29,459 nucleotides of DNA from a virus. The notes beneath the pieces are model-generated. The model was not told the origin of the DNA. It saw only the letters and a program-made list of their open reading frames with translations, and made no database searches. The DNA is taken from UHGV virus genome UHGV-0320987; one strand, written 5' to 3'. Each line of letters opens with the position of its first letter. The stretch's first letter is position 1. Below are positions 796 to 15,907 of the stretch, in pieces. Position numbers and translations under genes: made by a program.

Positions 796-1293
796 TCAGT
801 GCCACGATTTTTGCTTCTTCAGTGAATCGTATTGCTGCTCGCAGAATTCCCCTGCGATACGATACTTTTCAGCCTCAGCTGCTGTTGCGTTGTAAACTCG
901 GTTGCTTTCTTCAAGCATGTCGGCGAGCACACCGATGACCTTGCTGGCTGGCGTGCCAGGGGGGAAAGATCCGGTATAGTGTTCGGCGAGCCGCCTGGTT
1001 TTGTCAAGCTCGGCGCGCATGCTGTCAGCAGCGGAATTAGCATACTCAGCATCAGCACGCGCCGCATCGATACGGGATTGTGCTTCACGTTCAATTTGTG
1101 TTTTCTCCTGTTCACGCTGTGACCTTAACTTATCATCAGCCTGTTTCTGATCTTCCTTCGCCTGAGCATACCCGGCATCGTACTGGCGACTGCCGTGTGC
1201 ATTCCAGGCTACAACTCCTGATATGACCAGAACAGCAAGCATCGCCATGATAACCAACTGTTTCCAGTATGCTTTTGCGAATGCCCAGATCAT
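796..1293 (-). CDS. Rz: i-spanin (Rz-like), last gene of the lysis cassette
   Basis: N-terminal TM segment ([18 protein letters not shown]) followed by a charged coiled-coil periplasmic domain; start overlaps the endolysin stop (ATGA); contains an embedded +1-frame lipoprotein ORF. Confidence 0.65.
819..1115 (-). CDS. Rz1: o-spanin (Rz1-like outer-membrane lipoprotein) embedded in the +1 frame of Rz
   Basis: Lipobox LLTAC after a hydrophobic stretch, then a proline-rich mature region ([24 protein letters not shown]); lies entirely inside Rz. Start is either GTG at 1115 (AAGGT 8 nt upstream) or ATG at 1067. Confidence 0.55.
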   Translation of the reverse strand: MNRRKHKLNVKHNPVSMRRVLMLSMLIPLLTACAPSLTKPGGSPNTIPDLSPLARQPARSSVCSPTCLKKATEFTTQQQLRLKSIVSQGNSASSNTIH

Positions 1294-1919
1294 ACCGCCA
1301 GCACCTTACTGGCAGTGATGTATCGCGCGCGCCGGTCATCAATGCCGTTCCGGCCACCATTGATAAGCAGAGTTACACGTGCAATATCTCCGGTATACTT
1401 CATGCAGCCTTTGCTGGAGAAGAACCAGGCCGCGCTACGAGCCGCGTATTCGTCCTGTGCCAGCAGTTCAGGATTCTCCAGCAGGTCAACTTTCAGACCG
1501 TTTCCGCAGTCACGATAGTTATTCAAACCGGTAATCTGGATAAGCCCGCGCCCACGGTAATTCCAGCCATCGCCGGGAGCATTGTTACCCATGCGTTTGC
1601 TGTATACCAGATTTGCGATCGCGCGCTGGCGCTCAAGTGGCAATGGTGGTTCACCAGCGCGGCGCCCCAGTGCATTAGCCTGTCCCTGGGTGAGGCGTCC
1701 AGTCCGGACAAAGCTTGCCAGTCCGGTAACGCTGTAGTTGAAATTCTCCTGCAACCTGGTGAACCCCCCAGACTCATGCCCAACTTGAGCAATAAACATT
1801 GCCTGATCTTCTGCTTTGCTGATACCAAACTCTTTCATCGCAGAAGTTATATGCGAGAACCAGCGAGCGGCCAGCGCCTCGCTAATACCAGCAGCTCGCT
1901 GGAATTGTTTAATCTCCAT
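1290..1919 (-). CDS. Endolysin, glycoside hydrolase family 19 (chitinase-like)
   Basis: Motifs [12 protein letters not shown] and [20 protein letters not shown] typical of GH19 phage endolysins (recalled to be near-identical in SPN1S/epsilon15-type phages); flanked by holin and Rz. Confidence 0.85.
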
Positions 1920-2217
1920 GTTTAGACCTCGTTATTTTGAAAATCTGAACGACGTTACCGCGCGTTTTAATAACCGCAGCAAGCATGACAGCGTTGATAA
2001 TGACCTCAGATAAATCCACAGCCATTGGCGTGCGTAACCAGATTGCATAGACGACACGAACTGGAATACTGGCTGCAGCAACAATCAGGAAATAAGCAAG
2101 CCATCCCCCCCATCTTCGGTGTTGTGAACCGTTACGCCGGAAAGTGACAACGCGAATTGCTATGCCAGTACAAATAACTGCATTGGTGATAAGCAAAAAA
2201 AACTCATGCGTTACCAT
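1909..2217 (-). CDS. Holin-like small membrane protein
   Basis: 102 aa with about three hydrophobic TM segments and a basic C-terminal tail; GGGGAGAAAAG upstream of the ATG; immediately precedes the endolysin with overlaps. Confidence 0.55.
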
Positions 2218-2608
2218 CGTCTTTTCTCCCCGGAATTAACTCGCGTGGATTATCGGAACGGTGATAGAGCCAGATGCCAATTCGTACTGCGACGATTGCT
2301 GACACAAATGCGCCAGCAGAGAAAACAATCCCTTTCTCGAAAGAGTCCTGCGTGATGGTAGGTATCAGGCTGGCTATGCCGATAAGAATTGATGCTGCTG
2401 GTTTGTAGAAAAGAAGTCCGCAGAGAAAACTAAGCATCGACAAGAGTACGCGACGACGAATTGGGTACTCTACCGCAGAGGTAACAAAAATTACCGCGCC
2501 AGCCAAAGCTCCCAAAGCAACCTCAGGAGGCACTCCTGCTATCACCGCCGCCAGAGAACTCACGCTAAGCCACTGATTTAATGTTTCACTGGTTAGTTGA
2601 GCTGACAT
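2204..2608 (-). CDS. Holin/antiholin-like membrane protein
   Basis: About 134 aa with several TM segments. Start taken at ATG 2608 (GGTGGA 6 nt upstream); alternative ATG at 2620. Overlaps the next holin-like gene. Confidence 0.5.
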   Translation of the reverse strand: MSAQLTSETLNQWLSVSSLAAVIAGVPPEVALGALAGAVIFVTSAVEYPIRRRVLLSMLSFLCGLLFYKPAASILIGIASLIPTITQDSFEKGIVFSAGAFVSAIVAVRIGIWLYHRSDNPRELIPGRKDDGNA

Positions 2609-2829
2609 ATTTTCCACCATTTATATGCATAACGACCCCCTAAATAGTAAAGCATCATGCATGATAAACCATTTGTGGTTTTTTGTTACCCTGACATCGT
2701 CAATCCCCTGCCTTTGATGTCGATAATAAGGCTCGCCTTTTACATAACTCTGAACAGATTGCAGTACAGAAATGATTTAAAATATAGAGGCTTAGTTGAA
2801 TTCCGCGCCATCAAATGGCGCGGTAGCAG

Positions 2830-3114
2830 TCAAATATAGAAATAAACACCAAAACAAACAGTAACAGGAACAACAAAGTCAAACAGGCTTCCAACATCCC
2901 ATACGCGCGGATCAAAACCGCCCCACCACGGCATGTTCATACGCTTGCCATGCCCGAACATTTCAATCCAGCGATATTCTGCCTGGGTGTGTTCACGCGC
3001 AATGAAGAACGTACAACCAGCTATCGCTCCGTAAGCCCAGTTTCCGGTAAAAAGGCCAATCAGTACCTGCGCAGCCACAGCACAAAACGCATGAAGGAAA
3101 GGTGTTATATCCAT
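2830..3114 (-). CDS. Small hydrophobic membrane protein between tailspike and lysis genes (lysis-associated or lysogenic-conversion factor)
   Basis: 94 aa starting MDITPFLHAF with strong SD AAGGAG 6 nt upstream of ATG 3114; two hydrophobic segments. The longer ORF-track start at 3183 would overlap the tailspike and lacks an RBS. Confidence 0.5.
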   Translation of the reverse strand: MDITPFLHAFCAVAAQVLIGLFTGNWAYGAIAGCTFFIAREHTQAEYRWIEMFGHGKRMNMPWWGGFDPRVWDVGSLFDFVVPVTVCFGVYFYI

Positions 3115-3148
3115 TATCGCTCCTTTAACATAAGGATAAATAAACACT

Positions 3149-5464
3149 TCATAAAATAGATTTCGTCTTTGTAACAATAACATCTACAAAATCGCCTGCA
3201 GATATAGCTGATGGTACTGTATCTGCAAGAGTAATCTTTCCTGAAGAGATGCTTTGCACATCCAATAATTTATTTTCAATCCCATCCGTATATACCAATT
3301 TGATATCACTGAATGGAGGGTAATAAGTAATGGTCGCTTGGTATACATATATTTCACTGCCTGAAATTGATTTCACTACATACCTGCCCCTTACAAGATT
3401 AATTTTGAGTTCAGATAAATCTGTTTTATAACAGGTAATTCCTGAACCAATGTTAGCCATACTAATATCAGTATCACTATGATAAGTAATTGCTTTACCT
3501 TGCTTTAAAGTAAAAGTATTTTTACTTTTCCTTGGTAAGGATGTGCTATTTTTGTAATATCTACCAGTTAAGCATAGCCATGAAAATGCAGTATTCACTA
3601 CATTACCACCAGAATACACAGCTAAACGAATTGCACTAACTGGAACTCCTTCATTATTAATCCTGATCTTAATGGAAGAAATATTAGTAGCAGTTCCATA
3701 TCTATGGTTAGCAGAATCCCATTGCATCGAAGAAGTTATGGCTTCTGTTTGTGAGGTTATGACATTCCCGTCTCCATCTAATGCATACAGGTAAATGCGA
3801 AACGATGCCGTATCTGCTGAGAATGTAAACATATCACCATTTCTTACTGGTATATCTCCAGATTCCCATAACAACCCAAAATTCCGCATAAAAGCAAACT
3901 TAGAAGAAACTAGGTGACGGATATTATATAAACCATCTACATCTGTTTGATATGCTAATACACCAACTTCTCCATTGTTGGCACTGGATATAAATGGGGT
4001 GTTAGCATTTAAAGAAAACAATGTTACTTCATCGGATATATTTTCCTGAACATGAAATACTGCATTCCCCTTGCCATTATCAGTTACCTCTACATAAGTG
4101 TAAGGTGATGGATTGTATGGTTCATTTGTATAGTAAGGAGAACTTAACCATGAAGCCTCAATTGAGTTATTCCACGTATATTCACCAAAGTTAATTATCA
4201 ACTGTTGGTTAGTTGGGGATGATGGATATCGTTCAAAACGAAACCCGTAGAAGTAATTGTTATCACCTCTTTGAATATCAATTTTACCTGCCCCCTCCAT
4301 AGTTCCACCATAAAACTTATTGTGGTTATGATGATATGGATTATCAGCGAAAATGATATTATTCGTACGATTCAGATAAAAATAGTTTTCATTTATCCAT
4401 CCGTTCTCAACTCCAAGAAAATGAATTGTATCGACCTTTTTCAGGTTAAAGGTTGAGTATGCTATTGAATAATCCGTCGATGCCACCGAAGCATTATAAT
4501 TTGCATATAACTGTAAGTAGTCGCAACGCTCAATGTTTATATGCTGCCCTTTTGCCCCGATAATACGAATATCCGGTGTCGTTTCAGATGAAATACCAGA
4601 ATTTCTGATAATCGTTCCGAAGTTTTGTCTTGGGTTGTTAGGGTTTGATGCATTCCCGCCAAGCAATACCCCTATTCCTGAGTGGGATATGGTAAAAACA
4701 GCATTGGTCATTTCGAGGCTGACATTACGAAGATTTAATGTCTCCGTAATAATAAAATTACCTTCCGCTCGTAATGTTCTGGATGATTCTCGTGCATATT
4801 CTGCAGCCAGGATCAATGCAGATGTATCATCTGTTATACCATCGCCTTTTGCCCCAAAATCGCGAACACTAACGGTGTCTCTCATCTTATCCTGGAACGT
4901 TCGGTATACTGCTCCAGAACCATACTGAATAAACCAACCAAAACCACCAACAACCCCGGCGATTGCAGCATCGACATAATTACGCATTGAGCGATTATTT
5001 ACAGCGTCCTGCTCAAGTGATGGATCTGCAAGGTTAGAAATTTTGTTTTGCTTTGCATCGTAATATTTTGCAAGCAAAGATGGTTTCATCAATGCACGTC
5101 TGAACCACCCAAAACATTGCTGGATCAGCATCGTCAGGTAGTCAAAAGCATCTTCATGCACTTCGGGGAAAAATTTTCCCTGATTGCGAAGATCTGTCTC
5201 CTGCACTACATCAAGCACACGATCTATCGTAATTCGCCAGCCAGCAGCAAGCGGAGACGGCAGAACCACTGAACCGCCACTATAAGTGCCCGCCCCAGTT
5301 ACCGTATAACCGGTATCCAGAACCAATTCTGTTACGTTCCCGTTCAGGTCAGACACCTGAACAACCAGGTCTGATTTTCTGAAAATTCGAAAAGTATACG
5401 GAAACGATGTCGTAACGCCGTTACCTGTGTATTCGTTGTGGTCAACTTCGGTTGAGACCGTCAT
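3149..5464 (-). CDS. Tailspike (conserved particle-binding N-terminus, beta-helix polysaccharide depolymerase body)
   Basis: 771 aa; N-terminal MTVSTEVDHNEYTGNGVTTSFPYTF is the conserved tail-fibre/tailspike anchor motif; DFGAKGDGITDDTSAL is a pectate-lyase-like beta-helix signature; GGAG 7 nt upstream of the ATG; AT-rich, N/S/T/Y-rich body. Confidence 0.85.
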   Translation of the reverse strand: MTVSTEVDHNEYTGNGVTTSFPYTFRIFRKSDLVVQVSDLNGNVTELVLDTGYTVTGAGTYSGGSVVLPSPLAAGWRITIDRVLDVVQETDLRNQGKFFPEVHEDAFDYLTMLIQQCFGWFRRALMKPSLLAKYYDAKQNKISNLADPSLEQDAVNNRSMRNYVDAAIAGVVGGFGWFIQYGSGAVYRTFQDKMRDTVSVRDFGAKGDGITDDTSALILAAEYARESSRTLRAEGNFIITETLNLRNVSLEMTNAVFTISHSGIGVLLGGNASNPNNPRQNFGTIIRNSGISSETTPDIRIIGAKGQHINIERCDYLQLYANYNASVASTDYSIAYSTFNLKKVDTIHFLGVENGWINENYFYLNRTNNIIFADNPYHHNHNKFYGGTMEGAGKIDIQRGDNNYFYGFRFERYPSSPTNQQLIINFGEYTWNNSIEASWLSSPYYTNEPYNPSPYTYVEVTDNGKGNAVFHVQENISDEVTLFSLNANTPFISSANNGEVGVLAYQTDVDGLYNIRHLVSSKFAFMRNFGLLWESGDIPVRNGDMFTFSADTASFRIYLYALDGDGNVITSQTEAITSSMQWDSANHRYGTATNISSIKIRINNEGVPVSAIRLAVYSGGNVVNTAFSWLCLTGRYYKNSTSLPRKSKNTFTLKQGKAITYHSDTDISMANIGSGITCYKTDLSELKINLVRGRYVVKSISGSEIYVYQATITYYPPFSDIKLVYTDGIENKLLDVQSISSGKITLADTVPSAISAGDFVDVIVTKTKSIL

Positions 5465-5918: not shown

Positions 5919-5940
5919 AAAAAAGGCCGCAAGAGCGGCC
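5917..5940 (-). terminator. Intrinsic terminator of the zinc-ribbon gene (weaker in the plus direction)
   Basis: GGCCGC-AAGA-GCGGCC hairpin (5925-5940) overlapping the TAG stop; an 8-nt A-run on the plus strand gives a U8 tract for the minus-strand transcript. Confidence 0.7.
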
Positions 5941-6668
5941 TATCGTTTCGCTTTGTGCTCGTCCCAGCACGTTTTGCACCATGCCATTAAGCCGTCCGCA
6001 TTTTGATTATTAGAGTAAAAGCTGGTGCGTTTTCTGCGGACATTACAAATTGGGCACCACTTCATATGGCGTGTATTCTTTGGGCCATCGAGACACCTTG
6101 CACACCACTTAGTCAATCCATCTGGATTTTTTGACGATTTCCTGAATTTTTCATATGGAAGGTTTATTCTGCATCGCAAACACTGCTTACTACCACTTGA
6201 AACTCTGTTAGCTGATTCTTCTTGTGATGGCGATACAGAAGGTATTCTTGCTGGCTCAGATACTACCTGAGGAGCTTTTTTAGGTAACTGAGACGATATG
6301 TCATCACCTGGGAATCTGTCATGATATGCCGGACGCGTTGACACTCCAGGTGGAAGCTCTGCTGTAAATGGCTTTGGCTGAATCAGCGCCCTCTCTTTTG
6401 CTGACTCCTGTTGTTTATAATATGTCTGGATTACCGATATATCATAAGCAGGATGTACTGAAATATCCGGCGCATTACCTCCAGTTTTTTGAAACTGAGT
6501 GGAGGTGTGGTCTATCACCTGTGTACGATTAATCGTTATTTCTCCATCTTCGGTCTTTATCGTTTTGCGATGATTAACGACTGTGCGATCAGAGACCTTA
6601 GTCCTGTTCTGGTTGATAACGTAAATAATCACCGTAACAACACCAACAACTATCCAGAAAACTTCCAT
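5940..6668 (-). CDS. Membrane-anchored protein with a C-terminal double zinc-ribbon (four CxxC pairs); function unknown
   Basis: 242 aa; N-terminal TM helix (FWIVVGVVTVIIYVI); T/Q/P/S-rich linker; C-terminus CLRC..WCARC..WCPIC..WCKTC with an internal repeat (NPDGLTKWCARC / NADGLMAWCKTC); GAGGA 6 nt upstream of the ATG. Confidence 0.65.
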   Translation of the reverse strand: MEVFWIVVGVVTVIIYVINQNRTKVSDRTVVNHRKTIKTEDGEITINRTQVIDHTSTQFQKTGGNAPDISVHPAYDISVIQTYYKQQESAKERALIQPKPFTAELPPGVSTRPAYHDRFPGDDISSQLPKKAPQVVSEPARIPSVSPSQEESANRVSSGSKQCLRCRINLPYEKFRKSSKNPDGLTKWCARCLDGPKNTRHMKWCPICNVRRKRTSFYSNNQNADGLMAWCKTCWDEHKAKR

Positions 6669-6688
6669 TGCTTTTCCTCACAATAACA

Positions 6689-6703
6689 TTACCTTAAAGG
6701 TAA
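6689..6703. promoter_or_regulatory. Operator-like palindrome TTACCTTAAAGGTAA (copy 2)
   Basis: Part of a perfect 17-bp palindrome ATTACCTTAAAGGTAAT, 21 bp upstream of the zinc-ribbon gene start codon, i.e. over its core promoter. Confidence 0.6.
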
Positions 6704-6781
6704 TATCTTGCTTTCAGGTGATCAAGCGTTAAACGCAATCAACCAAATACGGTTGATTTTAATATTTCTCCGCGTTTATCA

Positions 6782-6796
6782 TTACCTTTTCGGTAA
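6782..6796. promoter_or_regulatory. Operator-like palindrome TTACCTTTTCGGTAA (copy 3)
   Basis: Perfect TTACC-N5-GGTAA in the zinc-ribbon / ant divergent region, 79 bp from copy 2. Confidence 0.55.
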
Positions 6797-6888
6797 ATTT
6801 ACATCGCACTCCTCTTGTGCCATAGTAATCGGGCACTGGCAAAATCCAGTGCCGGGATTGGCGTCCCGGATTACTAAAAGGCGCATTC

Positions 6889-6908
6889 ACCGCGCAAGCG
6901 GTTTTTTT
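6889..6908 (+). terminator. Terminator-like hairpin upstream of ant (possible attenuator or 3' end of a small RNA)
   Basis: ACCGC-GCAA-GCGGT (GNRA loop) followed by T6-7; preceded by further hairpins (GCACTGG..CCAGTGC 6833-6852) in a region without a credible ORF. Confidence 0.4.
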
Positions 6909-7065
6909 ATGCGTATAGCACGGCCACATTCGTATTATGGTGGGCTGTGTGGGGGCACCGAAAGGTGCGCCGGGTCCTTTTAGCCGGTTACGCCAACCCT
7001 GCACAGTTCACCACCAACCGATTGGCGTCGGTAGTGGTGATTGACCAGACTAAAAGGTAACCACT

Positions 7066-7989: not shown

Positions 7990-8625
7990 ATGCCACAACA
8001 ACTGCTGAATCCAGCAAAGGTAACTGAGGTTTTCGCTCATCTGAACGAAACTCCAGACAACCGCGCCCTGTATTCAGAGTTAGTGAACGGCAACGATGTC
8101 ACATCTGATGTCAAAGGCGTTTCTCTGGCTCCTGGATACCGCGTTGTCCGTGTAGACGATCGTAAGAAAGGCGAGATTCCACAGGCGCACTTTGAACTGT
8201 CATTGATAAATGACCTCACCGAAGAGGTAGTGTATTACAATCGTGTCATTATCCAGCCTGACAGCTATCTTAACTGCCGTCCTGTCACGCAGATATTGGT
8301 ATGGAGAACCCAGAAGCCTAAGCATCGTGCTGTGCTTCATGATTTCGCCGGCATCATCTTCATGAACTACCTCTTGGAACGGTACGATATCATCGTGTCT
8401 GATCGCAACCAGACTCATGAAGGCATGTCGTTCTGGCAGGCTCGCATGTATGACGCACTGGAACTTGGCCTCCACCTCTATGGTTACGACATGATGACAT
8501 GCGAGCTGATAGAGATGAATAACGAGGAAGAGCTTGAGAAAGGTGAAACCTGGTTATGGGGTGATGCGGAAAACTTCCAAAACAGATTGGCCATAATTTC
8601 AAAGCATAAGCTGCCAATAAAATAG
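7990..8625 (+). CDS. Hypothetical cytoplasmic protein (orphan cargo gene)
   Basis: 211 aa, no TM or signal peptide and no motif I recognise; GAGGTGA 5 nt upstream of the ATG; own operator copy upstream and own terminator downstream. Confidence 0.65.
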   Translation: MPQQLLNPAKVTEVFAHLNETPDNRALYSELVNGNDVTSDVKGVSLAPGYRVVRVDDRKKGEIPQAHFELSLINDLTEEVVYYNRVIIQPDSYLNCRPVTQILVWRTQKPKHRAVLHDFAGIIFMNYLLERYDIIVSDRNQTHEGMSFWQARMYDALELGLHLYGYDMMTCELIEMNNEEELEKGETWLWGDAENFQNRLAIISKHKLPIK

Positions 8626-8631
8626 TTCTTT

Positions 8632-8655
8632 AAGCCCGCGGCGCGGGCTTTTTTG
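8632..8655 (+). terminator. Intrinsic terminator after the 211-aa gene
   Basis: AAGCCCG-CGGCG-CGGGCTT hairpin followed by TTTTTT (8649-8654). Confidence 0.75.
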
Positions 8656-8685
8656 TGGACGAAACAAAAGTCAGTGCTACACTCA

Positions 8686-8713
8686 TTGACGCCACATTGA
8701 GGTGGCTTATAGA
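8686..8713 (+). promoter_or_regulatory. Candidate sigma70 promoter for the small secreted peptide gene
   Basis: TTGACG (-35, 8686-8691), 16-bp spacer, TATAGA (-10, 8708-8713); the predicted start site is only a few nt before ATG 8727, implying a very short leader. Confidence 0.4.
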
Positions 8714-8726
8714 TGGAAATGTCACA

Positions 8727-8888
8727 ATGAAAAAAGCATTTGCTGCACTGTTCGTTTTGTTGTCTCTGGTAGCTTCAACTCAGGCCTTTGCCGGTCGTTG
8801 TCAGCACGACAGCGATACTGCCGCTGACGGCTCCCGCTGCGGTGGGCGTTCTGCGGATTCCCGCCCGGGCGGCGGTGGCATTCGTTAA
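8727..8888 (+). CDS. Small secreted Cys/Gly-rich peptide (53-aa precursor)
   Basis: Classic Sec signal peptide MKKAFAALFVLLSLVASTQAFA with AxA cleavage site; about 31-aa mature part with two Cys and a Gly-rich tail; terminator directly after the stop. The ORF-track start at 8655 is a GTG inside the upstream terminator. Confidence 0.45.
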   Translation: MKKAFAALFVLLSLVASTQAFAGRCQHDSDTAADGSRCGGRSADSRPGGGGIR

Positions 8889-8916
8889 AAACAAGGCCGC
8901 GAAAGCGGCCTGTTTG
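8887..8916 (-). terminator. Intrinsic terminator ending the ejection-protein operon (also usable by the plus-strand peptide gene)
   Basis: AGGCCGC-GAAA-GCGGCCT hairpin (8894-8911); the minus strand reads the hairpin followed by TGTTTTTAA. Confidence 0.7.
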
Positions 8917-8917
8917 A

Positions 8918-9769
8918 TCACTGTGCAGTTTTCGCTGATCGATTTTCAGCTCTAAATTCAAGAACCGTTTCAATATTTCTTTCCTTCAGCATATCAATAA
9001 CATTTTTATTCATTTGACTATCACTGGTTAATAACTGGTAAACGTCGCTTCTCTCTTTATCAGAGTTTTCTTTAACAGCTGCTTTGCATGCCAAATGCTT
9101 ATTGAAATTTTCTACATCGCTAGTACAGGAATTTACGGCTGCTGATGAAATATCAGACGCTGAAGAAACACCATCATCCAAACGTTTTATAGCATTTTCT
9201 ATACATGAGTTAAGGGAATAAACGACAACTGAGCGATACCCTTCAGACGCACACCATTCTAAATTTCTTGAAGGATCGAGTGGTTTTACTTCGCTGGATT
9301 GAATTAACTTGTCAAAAACTGACTTATATTCAATCTGTTTTTTATCTATAGCCCATACTTCAGTAGCTGATTTATAATTCCCCGTATGCCTATTAACATC
9401 AAATCCATGTTTTATAAGCAAATCTGCCCATGAAAGATTTATTGATTCATTGTTATGAGGCCATTTTCCTGTCAGAACCGCCCCCATAGACCCCATATAT
9501 CCGCCATATGATGGTATAGCACCATGGCTCAGTAACTTCTCAGCAACCACAGGGCAATTAATTACATAAGAGGCGTAAAGCCCATTCCATAAAGCCCCTC
9601 TATAGTAATCGCCACGATTAGGTTCTTTTAAGTCGATAGCCTTTGATAATTGTTCACACGTTTTGCATGCATCAAAGTTATCCTTATTGCATTGCAATGA
9701 ACTGGCAGCTGTAGGATTTACAGAGACTATTGAAAGCACTATGCCAAAAAACAAATTTATTTTTTTCAT
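8918..9769 (-). CDS. Secreted protein of unknown function appended to the ejection-protein operon (possibly ankyrin-like repeats)
   Basis: 283 aa; signal peptide MKKINLFFGIVLSIVSVNPTAAS; AT-rich relative to neighbours; ATG 2 nt after the upstream stop; segments VAEKLLSHGAIPS and ADLLIKHGFDVNRHT resemble ankyrin-repeat helices (weak, from memory). Confidence 0.65.
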   Translation of the reverse strand: MKKINLFFGIVLSIVSVNPTAASSLQCNKDNFDACKTCEQLSKAIDLKEPNRGDYYRGALWNGLYASYVINCPVVAEKLLSHGAIPSYGGYMGSMGAVLTGKWPHNNESINLSWADLLIKHGFDVNRHTGNYKSATEVWAIDKKQIEYKSVFDKLIQSSEVKPLDPSRNLEWCASEGYRSVVVYSLNSCIENAIKRLDDGVSSASDISSAAVNSCTSDVENFNKHLACKAAVKENSDKERSDVYQLLTSDSQMNKNVIDMLKERNIETVLEFRAENRSAKTAQ

Positions 9770-9770
9770 C

Positions 9771-12700
9771 CTATTTCATCTGCTCTTCAACTTTATTTAG
9801 TAATGGTGATATCGCCCACAGGTTCTGAAAAGGTAGCATTTTACGGACCGCGTGGGTTTGCTGGCTGTCAAATTCTCCGTTAAGTACACCATTCGCAACC
9901 GTCGCGGCATCACCGCCAAGATCAAAGGTAGGACCAAGTAAAGCACCAATAGCATTACGACTCTGAAACCTTGATACCGGAGGCGCACCAAACATCGCGC
10001 CAAGACCAAACCTACCACCGCTTATGTTCTCAACGGTATTCAGCGGCTCAGAGAGCCAGCCAAGCATTCCGCCCCGGTCGATCCCCTCTTTCACAAGGTT
10101 ATTCCAGCTGTAGTCAATATCGCGACCGCTTAACTTCTGTTTCATCATATAGACCATTGAGCCAAGCGCAATCGTGCCAAGCGCACCAAGATAGAATGCA
10201 GCATCGCCCTGCTGGATACCAGATACCAGCACCCTGTTATGCTGTGCGAAGATAAACGTTTTGAACTGCGTGATCATCTTCCAGCCTTCTTTACTAAAAA
10301 ACAGCGGTGTATCACCTACGCCAGGCGTTACAATCACTGAGTCTACATCTTTCAGCACTGCAGACTGGAAAATCTCTCTAGCGAAACGGTCATCCCACAG
10401 ATGACTATGCCCGGTTAACAGCCCGTCCATATCCTCTCCGTGCTTCCCGAATTGCTCCCCGATTCGGCGCAGAACATCTTCATTGATGCCGACCTGTGCC
10501 ATCTTCCGCATTTCACTTTTGGAGAGCGTGCCACCAGCAGAAACTTGGCGAGCCGCGTCAAGTATCCTCGACTGCACTATCATCCCAGACCATGATTTAA
10601 GTGCGCTGTTCCACTGATTCATCAGCGTCCAGTTACCGAATTTCTGCGTCATCCAGTTCAGGCCTCGCTCAGCGGCGCTTCTCCGGCTATATGGGTCAGT
10701 AAGATCCGCTATAGCCTTTGTACGCGTAGACAGGACATAATCAAGCCCAACGGCCATTTCTCGCAAATCCCTGGTTGCAATCTTCACTGAGTCCATATTT
10801 TTAAGCATGCTTACCATTGGTCCGAGAGATTTTCTCAGGCCATGCTGCATCATCGGTCGCATCAGATCAGTTGCAGCGGAGACGGTCATTCCACCAAGCA
10901 AACGGAGGAAGTTAATATTCCTAGCAACTCGCCCGGCACGAACAAAGAAACTGCGTGGATCTTGAGGTGCACCGTAAGTACCAAGCAGTCGATCACGCAT
11001 AGCCGTAATATCCCTAATATCAGCCTCCCGTTGCTTCTCAAGAACTGCACGTCGTTTAGGTGTTTTAGCCTCTTTTATTAGCCGGGTATATTCCTCACTA
11101 ACCTGACGGATTTGCTCCCCCATATCTTTACGGCCAAACTGCGCAGTCAGCTCAATTTCTGGTGCCACCTGCCGGAGATAACTTTCCATGATGTAGTTAA
11201 CATCTGATTCAAGAAAATCTTCTATACGCTCATCAGGAATAAGCAGCGTTCTGCTTTTAGTGAAACCAGCCCGACCAACGAGTCTCTCTGGGATAATATC
11301 GGCTGGTACAAGCCCGGAAGGTGCGCCTATTATTTTATTCACGATCTCGTCAGCAGCGTCCTCTGCTTCCTCTCGGGATAGAGGCTCCATCTGCTTCAGT
11401 GCTCGTTCGCGGCTTGCATTCAGCCTTGTGGTTGAATTTGCCCGTTTTTGCAGTCGGCGAAGCTCAGAACGATATTTCCGTGGATTATCCAACAACTCCA
11501 TATGGCGCTGATAGACAGGAAGCTCACTCTTTGCCTGCGCTATATCATCAAGGCGTGTTTTAAGGTCAGAGCTTTCTTTCATCATTCTTGCCTGAAGTTT
11601 TTCTGATGAAGTCTCGGCCAACTCTTTTTCTATTCTTGTAAGACGCGCCTGTGTGTCAGTCTCCTGAGATATAAGCTTATTTCGTTTATCCAGTTCTTCC
11701 ATGAGTAGAATTTTTTTACCAGACCATTTCTCCGCTTCAGCGATTTCACTAGCGAGAGCATCAGCGCGCGGTGCCGATTCCTCTGCAGTTTTTAGCAATG
11801 AATTTATCCTTTCAATTCGCTGACCTGCTTTGTCAGCACCTTTGGCACTAATCCCTTGTATCCAGTTGGCAATTCGCCCTCTGAATTCAGTGCGGTCGGA
11901 AAGTATCTTATCGAACTTATAAATGCGGGGAAGATAACTTTTCGCCGTCACGACATCGATATCCTTAGGAAGGATCCCCAGTTCCTGCATACGGGCTTTT
12001 GTGGTCTCGAAAATGGGGCGGATTCTGGCGGCTGCTTGTGAAACCTCAGGAATATCACTCTGATCACCACGGCGCATAGCCATGCCAACAGCTTCATTGA
12101 AATCAATAAAGTTCATCCTCTTCACGCCGCGGGCGCTAACAGATTTGCTGTACTGCTGGTAAGCATCACGAGTGGCTTCCATCTGCTTATAAAGCATGGC
12201 GTCGTATTGCTTAATCTTAGTCTCGACTGCCGTAAACGTAGCCAACCCCTCATCATTTTTGGCGAAGAAATAGTTATTTTCGGCAAGCTGCTGGTTAATC
12301 TGACGGGAGACAAGAGATGGTGATTGCGCCAAGCGGCCAGCAGGAGTGACACTCAACGTTTTGTTAGCAAGTCCAAGTCCAGCGAGCTGTTCCTGATCGA
12401 GTGTGGTATTGAAAACCTGAGCTGCACCAATGCTTTGAGGAGAATCCATACCTCGCAAATGATTACCTACTGAGTTAACCACTGCCTCGCGCGCGCCAGG
12501 TCCAGCAAGTAGCTGTGCACCAGCACCAAGGATCCCACCAACGAGAGCATCAACAACAACGTTCGATACGCTCTCCATCGGTGAGCGAGCTTCCTGAGTG
12601 GCCTGTAATGCGGCCTCTGAAGCAACACTGCCAGCAGCATTCGCCAGGGCAAAACGCCCGGCTGTTTCTGCAATACGACCGCCACGAACGACAGCGCCGA

Positions 12701-13160
12701 ACGGAATAAACATAGAAATCGCATTGAATGGATCTGCTAATCTCATTGCTACAGAAGAGACTGTACCAGCAAATCCCAAGCCTGAATTGTATTCCATGTC
12801 AGCTCTCTGCTGATCGATTCGATGTTTAATTGCCATTGTTTCTTCAGGCGAACCGGAGTTGATAAACGAATCTGCAAAATCTTCATAGCCTTTAATATCT
12901 GCTGCATCGTTATCAAATGGGTTATATCCTTCAACCCTGTCAAACTGACTGAAAGGAGCACTGGCAATAAAGCTACCCAGCGTGTTATCTATACGAAATG
13001 CTGCTTGTCTAGACCTTTGAACGCGTTGATCACTGGTAAATGGGTTCACAGCAGAAAGCAAAGAAGGTGTTTCCATATAGAAATTACTGTCATCAGGTGC
13101 TGCTATTTGCTGAATATCCTCGCCAAGCAACTTTTTAGGATCCTGTTCATATATCGGCAT
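9771..13160 (-). CDS. Large internal virion / DNA-ejection protein (T7 gp16-like by position)
   Basis: 1129 aa, last large gene of the T7-like core-protein block; central coiled-coil region (ARLTRIEKELAETSSEKLQARMMKE...); start overlaps the upstream stop (TAATG). Confidence 0.6.
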   Translation of the reverse strand: MPIYEQDPKKLLGEDIQQIAAPDDSNFYMETPSLLSAVNPFTSDQRVQRSRQAAFRIDNTLGSFIASAPFSQFDRVEGYNPFDNDAADIKGYEDFADSFINSGSPEETMAIKHRIDQQRADMEYNSGLGFAGTVSSVAMRLADPFNAISMFIPFGAVVRGGRIAETAGRFALANAAGSVASEAALQATQEARSPMESVSNVVVDALVGGILGAGAQLLAGPGAREAVVNSVGNHLRGMDSPQSIGAAQVFNTTLDQEQLAGLGLANKTLSVTPAGRLAQSPSLVSRQINQQLAENNYFFAKNDEGLATFTAVETKIKQYDAMLYKQMEATRDAYQQYSKSVSARGVKRMNFIDFNEAVGMAMRRGDQSDIPEVSQAAARIRPIFETTKARMQELGILPKDIDVVTAKSYLPRIYKFDKILSDRTEFRGRIANWIQGISAKGADKAGQRIERINSLLKTAEESAPRADALASEIAEAEKWSGKKILLMEELDKRNKLISQETDTQARLTRIEKELAETSSEKLQARMMKESSDLKTRLDDIAQAKSELPVYQRHMELLDNPRKYRSELRRLQKRANSTTRLNASRERALKQMEPLSREEAEDAADEIVNKIIGAPSGLVPADIIPERLVGRAGFTKSRTLLIPDERIEDFLESDVNYIMESYLRQVAPEIELTAQFGRKDMGEQIRQVSEEYTRLIKEAKTPKRRAVLEKQREADIRDITAMRDRLLGTYGAPQDPRSFFVRAGRVARNINFLRLLGGMTVSAATDLMRPMMQHGLRKSLGPMVSMLKNMDSVKIATRDLREMAVGLDYVLSTRTKAIADLTDPYSRRSAAERGLNWMTQKFGNWTLMNQWNSALKSWSGMIVQSRILDAARQVSAGGTLSKSEMRKMAQVGINEDVLRRIGEQFGKHGEDMDGLLTGHSHLWDDRFAREIFQSAVLKDVDSVIVTPGVGDTPLFFSKEGWKMITQFKTFIFAQHNRVLVSGIQQGDAAFYLGALGTIALGSMVYMMKQKLSGRDIDYSWNNLVKEGIDRGGMLGWLSEPLNTVENISGGRFGLGAMFGAPPVSRFQSRNAIGALLGPTFDLGGDAATVANGVLNGEFDSQQTHAVRKMLPFQNLWAISPLLNKVEEQMK

Positions 13161-15907
13161 TATTTGCCCCCTGCGTATATATTGCTCGGAAGGTAATTGG
13201 CTGAACCATAACCGAATGGTTTGGTCAGATCTGGAGGAGTATATCCATCTTTATTGCTGAACTGCGGCAGCGGATTGCCTTCTCTCCGCACTCTAGCCTC
13301 ATCAACACGCTGTTGCTGGAACTGAATGGTTTGCCTGTACATTGGAGATGTCAGCTGATCCGGCTTGAAACGAACAGGGAGACCATTTTCTCCAATATAA
13401 TTTCTCGGTTCTATCGCTCCGTTTGCGTCAGGCTGTAAAACCATAACAGCATAACTCCTATCCCTTGCCGTAAGGCCATCAGAAACAAGTATTAAGTCCG
13501 TATCACTGCGAGGACCGCCAAAGGATTTTGATTTAAGCTCGCGTTTTTCCTGCTCCCACTGCCCCTGTATCCAGTTACCAGCACCATTATTTACTCCGTA
13601 CAATGCCTCAGGTGCATACTTCATAACCTCTGCTTTGCCATTAACCGTAGAAACTCCCCAAGTGGTTCTGATCATGGCATTGGTCATTTTCTCAGCCTGT
13701 TCTGCATCGCCACCTGTCTGTACAAAGTTAGCATCGTAAATTGTCTGGTAATCTCGCTGATAGGCCGCATTTGATTTTCCTGGATCGGTAATATCCGGAG
13801 ACCACGAACCAAAGGAAGTCAGACTGCTGGCGTTATTTTGTGCAGCAGTTGCCCTCGCCGCGACATATTTTTTGTCTCGCATGGCAGTGGAAAGCATCTG
13901 TTTCATTCGGTCATCCTGTTGGAACACCTGGCTGTAAGCCATATCAACAGCCTTATCCTCCGGCACGCCAGCGCGGGAATAATCGTAAACCTTGCCGTAA
14001 AATGCCATCGTACTTTTATCAAGTGTTGCCGCTGCCGCCGGATTATTATCGAATAACTGACCGTAGAATTTTGCCATCGGGACAACCAGCGCAGGATCTC
14101 TTGATGTTGCTCCACTGTTAAGCATTGTTTTAACCTGAGTTGGTATCATGCCGCTTTTAGTTGTGACGGTGACCAGTGTATTGATGCTCTGCGGATCAGA
14201 TATGGAAAACGAAGGCGCGATATCCTGCGCGAAATAACGGTCTACCGCTGCCTGATTGTTTTTGTCGTTCGGGTCCAGCGGGAAGTTATTTTGCATTGAA
14301 GACACGAACCTGTTTCTTCCCTGCTGAATCTCCCACTCCCTATCCATCTCTTTAAATTTGGCCTGCATTTTCTCCCAGCGTTGCTGGTTAGCTGCAAATC
14401 CAGGAGCGTTTGGATCCTGTGGACGTAAACGTTCAAGAATGTCTTGTCGTCCTTCTGGAGTGAGGTCTTTAGCGGCACCAATGACACCTCCATATTGTAT
14501 CTGCGCCTGCATATCCTTCCACTTCATAGCGCCAATGCGCGGACCATTGGCCCGGATAAAATCGTCCTCAGAAGGTAACTGCTCAGGTTTCAATCCTTCA
14601 TCAAGGGCTGAATATGCATCTTTAACTACGGTGCTAAGCTGGTCCGCATACTGCTGGCGGTACTGATTTCTCAGCTCATTAGCCTGCCTCAATGCCTGTA
14701 TTTGCATTTGAGGGCTCATAGCATCAAATGCCGCATTGCCCGTATAACGCTTAGGTGAATCAAGGTTAGTTAGACCAAGGGCTGCCGAGATACCAGTTTC
14801 AAGCTGTTCGGTGCTATAAGGCATACTGCCATTTTCGTGTTTAATAATCCCAGCACATAAAGCAGCTAGTGTCTTTGGGTTAGAGATATCAAGCTGATCA
14901 TTCTCCCCAACACCAAGCTCACCACACAATGCCCTAATATAAGCATCAGTATTATTACCATCACTAGCCGGAGCATAGCGATTAACAATCTCGCTAACGG
15001 TGTCATAGCCTTGACGCTGGTAAGACAACATATTTTTACCCAACGCGCGGATTCCATGCTCAGGGGTAGCAAACGTTGCAAAACGTCCATCGCTACCGAT
15101 CTGACCTTCCCACGGGTTAGATTTGCTCGCTTCAATATTACCAGGGTTATTATTACGTAACCCACGAGCATCCAATGAATTACCATGTGACATTGCACGA
15201 CTCACACCGTCAAGATCCCCTGGCTCTCCATTAACCTGAAGAAACTCGTTGTATTTTTGAGCGATATTTCCTATCCATGCTTGCTGCCCCATTTGTTCCT
15301 TGAGCTGAGTTTTCTGCTGAACACGCCACTCATCAGGAAGCCCATGCGCATCAGCGTATTGATCAATAGATTCAAATCGCTGCTTGGCTAAATCGACAAA
15401 TGCTTGGTTATCGCTATATAGCCCCGCAGACTGAGTGACAGCCAATGCATTTCCTGACAAATACGTTTGATCTTGGAATTGCTGAAACTGCCCAACTTCA
15501 TATCGACGTGCCTGATTGTAATAAGACTGCATAGACTGCTGGAGTTGAAAGGATAATTTATTCCTTTCCTCACTTTCAGGAATTGAGCCTAATAATGCCT
15601 GAGCCCTTTCCTGCATATTTTTCATAACAGCGTCACTCTGACCAAGAGCGTTTTTACCCTGTTTAGAAATCAGCCCATTTTCAGGGTTGTTAATCTGGTC
15701 ATCTGCAAATTGGTTAAATTGCAGTAACGCCTCCTGGGCCATAGCAACATTCGCTTTCTGCCTGGCTTCACCATATGCCACCGCATACTGATCTGCGACA
15801 TTCGCCAGCACCTGACCTGCTTGAGGAACATCGAAGGTCTGAAAACCACCGGTTTGCACACCACGACTTTGCACCTGGCGTCCGGATGTAGTAGGAACAA
15901 CAGGCAT
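13160..15907 (-). CDS. Internal virion / ejection protein (T7 gp15-like by position)
   Basis: 915 aa Q/A/N-rich protein between the gp14-like and gp16-like genes, with TGATG/TAATG overlaps on both sides. Confidence 0.55.
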   Translation of the reverse strand: MPVVPTTSGRQVQSRGVQTGGFQTFDVPQAGQVLANVADQYAVAYGEARQKANVAMAQEALLQFNQFADDQINNPENGLISKQGKNALGQSDAVMKNMQERAQALLGSIPESEERNKLSFQLQQSMQSYYNQARRYEVGQFQQFQDQTYLSGNALAVTQSAGLYSDNQAFVDLAKQRFESIDQYADAHGLPDEWRVQQKTQLKEQMGQQAWIGNIAQKYNEFLQVNGEPGDLDGVSRAMSHGNSLDARGLRNNNPGNIEASKSNPWEGQIGSDGRFATFATPEHGIRALGKNMLSYQRQGYDTVSEIVNRYAPASDGNNTDAYIRALCGELGVGENDQLDISNPKTLAALCAGIIKHENGSMPYSTEQLETGISAALGLTNLDSPKRYTGNAAFDAMSPQMQIQALRQANELRNQYRQQYADQLSTVVKDAYSALDEGLKPEQLPSEDDFIRANGPRIGAMKWKDMQAQIQYGGVIGAAKDLTPEGRQDILERLRPQDPNAPGFAANQQRWEKMQAKFKEMDREWEIQQGRNRFVSSMQNNFPLDPNDKNNQAAVDRYFAQDIAPSFSISDPQSINTLVTVTTKSGMIPTQVKTMLNSGATSRDPALVVPMAKFYGQLFDNNPAAAATLDKSTMAFYGKVYDYSRAGVPEDKAVDMAYSQVFQQDDRMKQMLSTAMRDKKYVAARATAAQNNASSLTSFGSWSPDITDPGKSNAAYQRDYQTIYDANFVQTGGDAEQAEKMTNAMIRTTWGVSTVNGKAEVMKYAPEALYGVNNGAGNWIQGQWEQEKRELKSKSFGGPRSDTDLILVSDGLTARDRSYAVMVLQPDANGAIEPRNYIGENGLPVRFKPDQLTSPMYRQTIQFQQQRVDEARVRREGNPLPQFSNKDGYTPPDLTKPFGYGSANYLPSNIYAGGK

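Follow-up and report, generated by a model that had tools for sequence, protein, structure and literature searches.

The minus-strand gene at positions 8918 to 9769 of UHGV virus genome UHGV-0320987 encodes a 283-aa protein that we propose to be a periplasmic, immunity-type inhibitor of an Enc34-type lysin carried in the virion. Throughout, the window means the whole stretch of DNA analyzed, 29,459 nucleotides. It represents a temperate podophage or prophage; Escherichia phage EC.W1-9 (PP445227) is nearly identical to it, and phages phiV10 and TL-2011b are relatives. The proposal comes from gene association, and we would put its chances at about even. The candidate target is an Enc34-type (PHA02564) domain in a 915-aa ejection protein, encoded two genes upstream of the 283-aa gene and in the same operon. 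A first-pass annotation, made from the letters of the window, had suggested either a periplasmic factor or a superinfection-exclusion protein; the evidence assembled here favors that idea and gives it a putative target. The open reading frame (ORF) proved to be as first delineated, and it lies on the minus strand:

8918 to 9769, minus strand, stop codon included: coding sequence of the 283-aa exported two-domain protein, matched end to end by PHROG 6118, with a nonsynonymous to synonymous rate ratio (dN/dS) of 0.16.

An Enc34-type hydrolase domain in the ejection protein

The minus-strand late structural operon of the window ends in T7-type internal virion (ejection) proteins. One of these contains the proposed target, and the phage's own lysis enzyme lies elsewhere in the window:

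13160 to 15907, minus strand: 915-aa gp15-like internal virion protein (PHROG 1044/992/873/7182).

14813 to 15169, minus strand: Enc34-type (PHA02564) peptidoglycan hydrolase domain, residues 247-365 of the 915-aa protein, assigned from Protein Data Bank (PDB) matches and the translation; proposed target.

1290 to 1919, minus strand: the phage's own endolysin, of the GH19 type, with a fold that differs from that of the proposed target (PDB 4ok7_A, "Endolysin", E 2.9e-115, and GH19 chitinases).

Residues 247-365 of the 915-aa protein match the catalytic domain of the Hafnia phage Enc34 endolysin (PDB 7q47_A, E 3.7e-15) and a 1295-aa phage protein labelled "Gp29" (PDB 9vvp_L, E 5e-35); a literature search returned nothing on PDB 9VVP. 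The Enc34 domain is experimentally muralytic and has a lysozyme-like helical fold, with the catalytic Glu residing in a HENG motif (PMC8943055). In the window the domain reads RNNNPGNI ... HENGS, and the catalytic-Glu motif is intact (IIKHENGS). Hidden Markov model (HMM) searches found an Enc34 domain in the gp15-like protein at all eight of the gene-carrying phage loci checked. The domain itself is far more widespread: of 50,697 phage records, 807 (1.6%) contain an Enc34-type domain, in ejection proteins and in endolysins, and only one of these 807 records has the 283-aa gene.

Because the endolysin in the window is a GH19 enzyme, inhibition of Enc34-type domains would leave the phage's own lysis unaffected and would create no self-conflict there. 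The endolysin of the Serratia prophage is of the Phage_lysozyme type. In the Morganella morganii prophage (L004), the Enc34-type fold is used twice, in the gp15-like protein (1767-4571) and in the endolysin (12247-12720), and the virion domain and the endolysin share 42% identity over 128 aa. These enzymes bear on an alternative in which the 283-aa protein is a lysis-timing or envelope factor of the late program that might, for instance, hold back an Enc34-type endolysin or stabilize the wall until assembly is complete. Such a role would suit a gene that, to judge from the operon layout, is co-transcribed with late genes, and it would suit the Morganella relatives with their Enc34-type endolysin. 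However, the phage in the window and the Serratia prophage both keep the gene next to endolysins of other types, and the gene is absent from most related phages, which argues that it is not part of a core lysis system. We regard a lysis-timing role as improbable.

Some stand-alone N-domain genes are paired with Enc34-type hydrolases

The association that carries the inhibitor proposal comes from relatives in which the two halves of the protein occur apart. A family profile run against 1.8 billion representative proteins gave 68 matches, revealing two separable modules. The N-terminal module (N-domain; profile positions 1-155) is also found in stand-alone exported proteins of ~160-170 aa with the same four Cys residues, and the C-terminal module (C-domain; profile positions ~160-272) in stand-alone exported proteins of 110-160 aa that belong to no known family. 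In a homologue search with the combined profile, the stand-alone N-domain proteins were missed.

An HMM of the Enc34 domain was built and used to scan all fetched stand-alone N-domain loci, from metagenomes and genomes, which fall into 18 deep lineages. An Enc34-type hydrolase lies beside the stand-alone N-domain gene in five of the 18, and four of these are tight pairs:

L009 (a Bacteriovoracia metagenome-assembled genome): hydrolase gene, then N-domain gene, with a 4-nt overlap (ATGA).

L053: N-domain gene, then hydrolase gene (6410-6958), with a 7-nt gap.

L057: N-domain gene, then hydrolase gene (841-1353), with an 8-nt overlap.

L118: N-domain gene, then hydrolase gene (4263-4802), with a 4-nt overlap.

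L049: hydrolase as the C terminus of a minor-tail protein encoded within the same prophage operon, with ~3.2 kb between the genes.

By chance roughly 0.05 matches or fewer would be expected, and a rough Poisson estimate gives P ~3e-7 for at least four co-occurrences. The N-domains of the linked lineages, L118 left out, are 33-56% identical to one another, and the associations are therefore old and independent. In L009 the hydrolase gene encodes 219 aa, and its N-terminal half carries the motif RNQNPGNI...GGFAVF...KYAP, a domain in common with residues 247-365 of the 915-aa protein. The hydrolases of L053, L057 and L118 are small (170-182 aa), each has a His-rich tail, and each is encoded directly downstream of an exported N-domain gene. 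Moreover, each of the four tightly paired hydrolases lacks a signal peptide, and its N-domain partner has a leader. A leaderless hydrolase with an exported partner is the classic layout of effector-immunity pairs in which the effector acts in the periplasm of the target cell. The L053 pair lies 1.3 kb from the gene for TssH of a type VI secretion system (T6SS) (TIGR03345, 1274 bits versus a cut-off of 885). L053, L057 and L118 thus represent a candidate new effector-immunity cassette. At L050, a neighboring gene had seemed lysozyme-like on visual inspection; neither Pfam nor NCBIfam gave a match, and it was not used as evidence.

Proposed action and the points that weigh against it

In the proposed scheme, the N-domain would bind and block Enc34-type muralytic domains in the periplasm. 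The Enc34 domain of the gp15-like ejection protein would have to cut the cell wall there during DNA delivery, and the exported 283-aa protein would neutralize this domain when it arrives with sibling or related phages. Protection would fall to a cell in the late phase of infection, or to a lysogen if there is any transcription in the prophage state; entry would be blocked or slowed (superinfection exclusion) and envelope damage prevented. A broader version of the proposal is more doubtful, and we advance it tentatively: that the N-domain is the first immunity or inhibitor family for Enc34-type hydrolases, serving in effector-immunity cassettes (some of them T6SS-linked) and in temperate phages, where its fusion to a second exported module would yield a periplasmic trap with two heads, set for the ejection complex of incoming relatives and serving podophages with T7-type ejectosomes as Spackle-like exclusion, with the C-domain as an independent exclusion module. 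Physical binding, inhibition, the timing of expression, the exclusion phenotype and the part played by the C-domain are features that we infer.

Several points weigh against the inhibitor proposal. Its functional claims derive from association, and 13 of the 18 stand-alone N-domain lineages have no Enc34 neighbor in the scanned DNA; some of the neighbor-less contigs are short, but L052, L054, L117 and L120 are well flanked. Association with phage structural modules could partly reflect the fact that both genes are phage-borne. The 283-aa gene is without a promoter of its own in the window and lies at the end of a late operon, and late expression would be the wrong time for classical prophage-mediated exclusion. 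Since the Morganella endolysin is itself Enc34-type, a broad inhibitor would fight its own phage's lysis there, and specificity must be assumed. Finally, the inhibitor scheme does not explain the C-domain.

Predicted export signal, invariant cysteines and two domains

The translation of the 283-aa ORF divides into a leader and two domains:

9701 to 9769, minus strand: predicted Sec (SPI-type) signal peptide, residues 1-23 (MKKINLFFGIVLSIVSVNPTAAS), from a heuristic analysis of n-, h- and c-regions.

9284 to 9700, minus strand: N-terminal domain, residues ~24-162, ankyrin-like, with invariant Cys residues C27, C35, C38 and C72.

8921 to 9283, minus strand: C-terminal domain, residues ~163-283, helical, with invariant Cys residues C173, C189, C215 and C228.

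The Sec signal peptide reported at first pass is also predicted by our heuristic analysis. The leader consists of MKK, 14 uncharged hydrophobic residues and NPTAAS/S; its core has a Kyte-Doolittle value of 2.94, small residues stand at -1 and -3, and the N terminus as a whole fits Sec export and cleavage by signal peptidase I. Leaders of a similar type, not conserved in sequence but always hydrophobic, are present in eight of eight diverse full-length homologues, and among the stand-alone relatives 16 of 18 N-domain proteins and 13 of 15 C-domain proteins have one. A lipoprotein was considered and ruled out, as there is no lipobox (SLQ-C). All eight Cys residues are invariant in 20 homologues. 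The protein is accordingly predicted to be Sec-exported, disulfide-stabilized and periplasmic.

An AlphaFold2 (AF2) model built from the family alignment has a mean predicted local distance difference test score (pLDDT) of 80.8. The leader and residues 91-98 are disordered; pLDDT is below 50 at residues 1-23 and above 90 in the C-domain. The N-domain shows an ankyrin-like fold, with stacked helix-turn-helix repeats of ~33 residues and structural similarity to solved ankyrin domains. Two segments had been called weakly ankyrin-like from the sequence, and correctly so: they are divergent ANK-like repeats at residues 58-90 (GALWNGLYASYVINCPVVAEKLLSHGAIPSYGG) and 91-126 (ending ...WADLLIKHGFDVN). 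A search with ankyrin HMMs, proposed at the same time as a check, was negative: Pfam Ank models (PF00023, PF12796, PF13637 and others) gave no match at E<=10 to the 283-aa protein or to any of 20 family members. At the profile level, the family matches P0059, P0073, P0075, P0078 and P0084 over 4-7 stretches each (E 1.9e-10 to 7.5e-4), of which P0059 and P0073 are multi-Ank proteins by Pfam scan.

Other searches placed the protein in no described family. PHROG 6118, which spans its full length, is of unknown function, and the RefSeq label is "hypothetical protein"; a literature search found nothing on the RefSeq accession WP_000723561. Neither the protein nor its homologues matched a family in Pfam, NCBIfam or PADLOC, and the same resources gave no match to the lysozyme inhibitor families Ivy, PliC/MliC, PliI, PliG and LprI. 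PDB sequence searches with the full-family and C-domain profiles returned nothing significant, and a fold search of BFVD gave no match at E<=0.001 and only weak ankyrin matches.

An ankyrin-like protein encoded by a prophage of E. coli could also be a host-directed virulence or colonization factor with eukaryotic cells as its target, or a periplasmic fitness factor of another kind that has nothing to do with peptidoglycan hydrolases. Effectors aimed at eukaryotes commonly contain ankyrin repeats, the gene is present in extraintestinal pathogenic (ExPEC) and avian pathogenic (APEC) E. coli strains such as IHE3034 and APEC O18, and periplasmic ANK proteins that are not inhibitors exist (Pseudomonas aeruginosa AnkB, Rickettsia RARP-1). 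However, a Sec leader by itself takes a protein no further than the periplasm, relatives sit beside hydrolases in environmental bacteria and in the Bacteriovoracia assembly, and the E. coli hosts of the gene are diverse, from bird to surface water. We give this explanation a slim chance.

The N-domain also occurs behind MORN repeats in marine contigs (L061-L065; ~479 aa) and at the front of longer proteins, namely P0054, which has C-terminal TPR/YfiO-like repeats, and P0062, P0065 and P0066, which have uncharacterized extensions. The module has therefore been reused in other exported architectures.

The C-domain of the 283-aa protein contains the motif LDDGVSxASDI, which in the family takes the form LDDG[VI]SPASDIA and lies between two Cys residues; the domain has no Pfam or PDB relative. 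Stand-alone C-domain genes occupy prophage cargo positions at L112, and at L113 and L114, where they are opposite-strand morons. At L112 (4204-5483) a gene for a 160-aa exported C-domain protein overlaps the stop of a prophage gene for a CI-like Peptidase_S24 repressor, and because of this overlap the C-domain gene is probably expressed in the lysogen. These cargo positions fit a lysogeny or exclusion-type function, without defining one. A viral scan with the C-domain returned the same prophages and one uninformative satellite-like contig (L111). As the 1129-aa gp16-like protein encoded just upstream has no informative relative in a PDB search, no second enzymatic target can be named for the C-domain.

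The gene occupies a cargo slot behind the gp16-like gene

Homologues of the 283-aa protein are encoded in Klebsiella (84-89% identity), Serratia (61%), and Morganella and Providencia (~40%). Among 5,426 complete E. coli genomes, 106 (~2%) have the gene, always in the chromosome, and these strains come from wild bird, chicken, cattle, pig, dog, human and surface water. Among the 50,697 sequenced phage records it is present in one, EC.W1-9. A viral-contig scan with the protein family gave 31 loci, all 31 with a gp16-like gene directly upstream, and a scan of the genome collection gave two loci. The Morganella and Serratia prophages likewise have the gene directly after the gp16-like gene, and this synteny persists where gp16 identity is as low as 41-56%. 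A chance ORF was ruled out on conservation and rate ratio: the gene is under selection (dN/dS 0.16 against the Klebsiella-type copy), recurs in the 106 E. coli genomes and is syntenic at the 31 viral loci.

Related phages hold other genes at this position. In Klebsiella phage ST512-KPC3phi13.3, where the 3' end of the gp16-like gene is 86% identical at the nucleotide level, the slot contains a gene for an unrelated 204-aa leaderless cytoplasmic protein (L044, 3380-3994). In phiV10 it encodes a 46-aa two-helix membrane protein (L003, 5066-5206), and in TL-2011b it contains Ant/Arc. The position immediately behind the gp16-like gene is a hotspot for cargo, and because related phages fill it with other genes, the 283-aa gene is dispensable cargo. 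Against the Klebsiella-type copy (L035), synonymous divergence (dS) is 0.40 for the cargo gene and 1.04 for the adjacent gp16-like gene, which suggests that the cargo gene has been exchanged between phages more recently.

The gene had been noted as lower in GC than its neighbors, and the values agree: 36.9% (28.2% at third codon positions) versus 48.2% for the 1129-aa gene and 47.7% for the window, the lowest among the 16 large genes measured. Recent foreign insertion was considered as the cause and ruled out. The homologues, down to ~40% identity, are equally low (35-40%, versus 44-54% for their gp16 genes) and lie in the same slot, so low GC does not mark the gene as a recent arrival.

The slot and the stand-alone pairs together raise the alternative that the 283-aa gene is an orphan immunity gene, lysogenic-conversion cargo directed against Enc34-type effectors of competing bacteria (T6SS or bacteriocin-like) and not against phages. 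The pairs resemble effector-immunity cassettes, with L053 near TssH, and Stenotrophomonas rhizophila has a described T6SS effector of Enc34-like type, accompanied by immunity proteins that bear signal peptides (PMC13340143). The 283-aa gene is AT-rich and sits as cargo in a slot whose content varies, and one copy looks autonomous: at L042 (5824-6000; Morganella/Providencia-like) the homologue is preceded by a terminator-like hairpin and a spacer of ~175 nt with a GGGGGA Shine-Dalgarno sequence, which suggests an autonomous transcription unit whose promoter the spacer might hold. However, over the range of 40-100% identity the gene keeps strict linkage to an ejection operon in which that hydrolase family is itself represented, and in the window it starts 1 nt from the preceding stop and has no promoter of its own. 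An antibacterial orphan immunity gene is in our judgment possible but unlikely.

Operon position and expression

The remaining features of the late operon are as follows:

9771 to 13160, minus strand: 1129-aa gp16-like internal virion (ejection) protein (PHROG 342/16310), which precedes the ORF at all loci.

9767 to 9773, minus strand: stop-start junction TAG-G-ATG between the 1129-aa gene and the 283-aa ORF.

8894 to 8911, minus strand: hairpin and T-run, intrinsic terminator-like, directly 3' of the 283-aa ORF stop, ending the late/ejection operon.

Late operon, minus strand: 154-aa internal virion protein (PHROG 308).

Late operon, minus strand: 191-aa protein (Pfam T7_gp14).

The 283-aa ORF starts with ATG at 9769, and the TAG of the 1129-aa gene occupies 9771-9773. 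The adjacency seen at first pass thus holds, but the spacing is 1 nt rather than the 2 nt given then. The description "almost no RBS" (ribosome-binding site) is fair, because the sole purine-rich run ahead of the ORF is an AGG that directly abuts the ATG, a weak Shine-Dalgarno sequence. The suggestion of coupled expression does not extend to the family as a conserved feature: the gap between the gp16-like gene and the homologue is 11 nt in Serratia, 31 nt in Morganella (with a GAGG Shine-Dalgarno sequence) and a hairpin plus ~175 nt of spacer at L042. A consensus scan of both strands from 8400 to 10600 found no sigma-70-like promoter, against 3.8 expected. The terminator hairpin at 8894-8911 is kept in phiV10-type phages.

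Its position directly after the internal virion protein genes, with possible translational coupling, would also suit a component of the virion or ejection complex, or an assembly chaperone of the ejection proteins. Against this stand the cleavable-looking export signal and the conserved disulfide cysteines, and the fact that close relatives substitute unrelated genes (204-aa cytoplasmic protein, 46-aa membrane protein, Ant/Arc). A structural or chaperone role is very improbable.

Other reading frames in the window

Convergent with the 283-aa ORF is a plus-strand ORF of 53 aa (8727-8888) with a signal-peptide-like start (MKKAFAALFVLLSLVASTQAFA...). It is kept in TL-2011b, where it is annotated as "putative transmembrane anchored protein", and in phiv142-3, HEMP4 and Klebsiella phage ST512-KPC3phi13.3. 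The hairpin at 8894-8911 is common to both ORFs and may be a bidirectional terminator. Adjoining the lysis cassette, a plus-strand ORF of 179 aa (62-601) has a leader-like N terminus (MKKVFLCAILASLSYPAIASS) and a long, charged, coiled-coil-like body, and is possibly a further exported cargo protein. In the variable region between the tail fiber and the ejection operon, a minus-strand ORF of 242 aa (5940-6668) belongs to PHROG 6762, of unknown function, and its last ~45 residues match HNH, endonuclease VII and Lar-like zinc-finger families.

Significance and comparison with known systems

If the inhibitor proposal is correct, the unannotated family PHROG 6118 gains a testable function, and the 283-aa protein would join T4 Spackle as a second mechanistic case of one phage stopping a rival at the wall-cutting step of its entry, with a fold unrelated to that of Spackle and an enzyme family different from that of gp5. 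It would also be the first inhibitor of the widespread Enc34-type enzymes, which are being engineered as antibacterials, present in ~2% of complete E. coli genomes and in Klebsiella, Serratia, Morganella and Providencia prophages; this would bear on phage host range, phage therapy and enzybiotic design. The pairs of small hydrolase and N-domain genes, for their part, would point to an undescribed effector-immunity family in environmental bacteria.

In its genomic setting the gene resembles the late-operon morons of temperate phages, of the lambda lom/bor type: it is AT-rich accessory cargo of distinct base composition, located at the end of the late structural operon, variably present among related phages and closed by its own terminator. 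It differs from them in that no promoter of its own was detected in the window and in that slot and gene have been co-inherited over deep divergence.

In its proposed action the closest parallel is T4 Spackle (gp61.3), which blocks the gp5 tail lysozyme in the periplasm and so excludes superinfecting phage (PMC7677548, PMC7650644). Both proteins are phage-encoded and have an N-terminal leader, cleaved in Spackle and predicted in the 283-aa protein. In both cases the target, known or proposed, is a virion-borne muralytic domain acting in the periplasm at entry, and the outcome, proposed for the 283-aa protein, is exclusion of relatives. Escape from Spackle maps to gp5 (G322D). Spackle inhibits gp5 and not T4L (PMC7650644); the 283-aa family may likewise need to tell a virion lysin from an endolysin of the same fold, as in Morganella, where the two are 42% identical and the double use of the Enc34 fold at L004 mirrors that of T4 gp5 and T4L. 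In contrast, Spackle has 97 aa and the 283-aa protein two domains, the target families differ (the T4L-like lysozyme domain of gp5 versus Enc34/PHA02564), and Spackle is an early gene product of a virulent myophage, whereas the 283-aa gene ends the late operon of a temperate podophage. No sequence or fold homology between the two proteins was found.

Ankyrin proteins that restrain enzymes in the periplasm provide the second parallel. Bd3460 of Bdellovibrio bacteriovorus is a periplasmic ankyrin protein that inhibits the bacterium's own DD-endopeptidases for self-protection (PMC4686830). Its likeness to the 283-aa protein is at the general level of the ankyrin fold only: it lacks the cysteine pattern and the second domain, and it acts on DD-endopeptidases, not on a glycosidase-type Enc34 domain. 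Tli of Enterobacter cloacae is an exported, all-helical ankyrin-repeat immunity protein that cups the T6SS phospholipase Tle (PMC11470151). Here the likeness includes the gene pair of leaderless enzyme and leader-bearing partner, as at L053, L057, L118 and L009; however, Tli has six canonical repeats, inhibits a lipase and is not phage-borne, and no sequence relationship with the 283-aa protein was detected. In S. rhizophila, the T6SS effector Tae5 has an N-terminal domain that resembles the Enc34 endolysin, and the immunity protein proposed for Tae5 is Tai5a (WP_137189658.1), an 18.5-kDa "hypothetical protein" with a signal peptide (PMC13340143). Tai5a is of the same size class as the stand-alone N-domain proteins, to which we liken it by description only, and its context is a T6SS, not a phage. 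We propose, by analogy with these systems, that the 283-aa family works most like Spackle or an ankyrin immunity protein while being a member of neither family.

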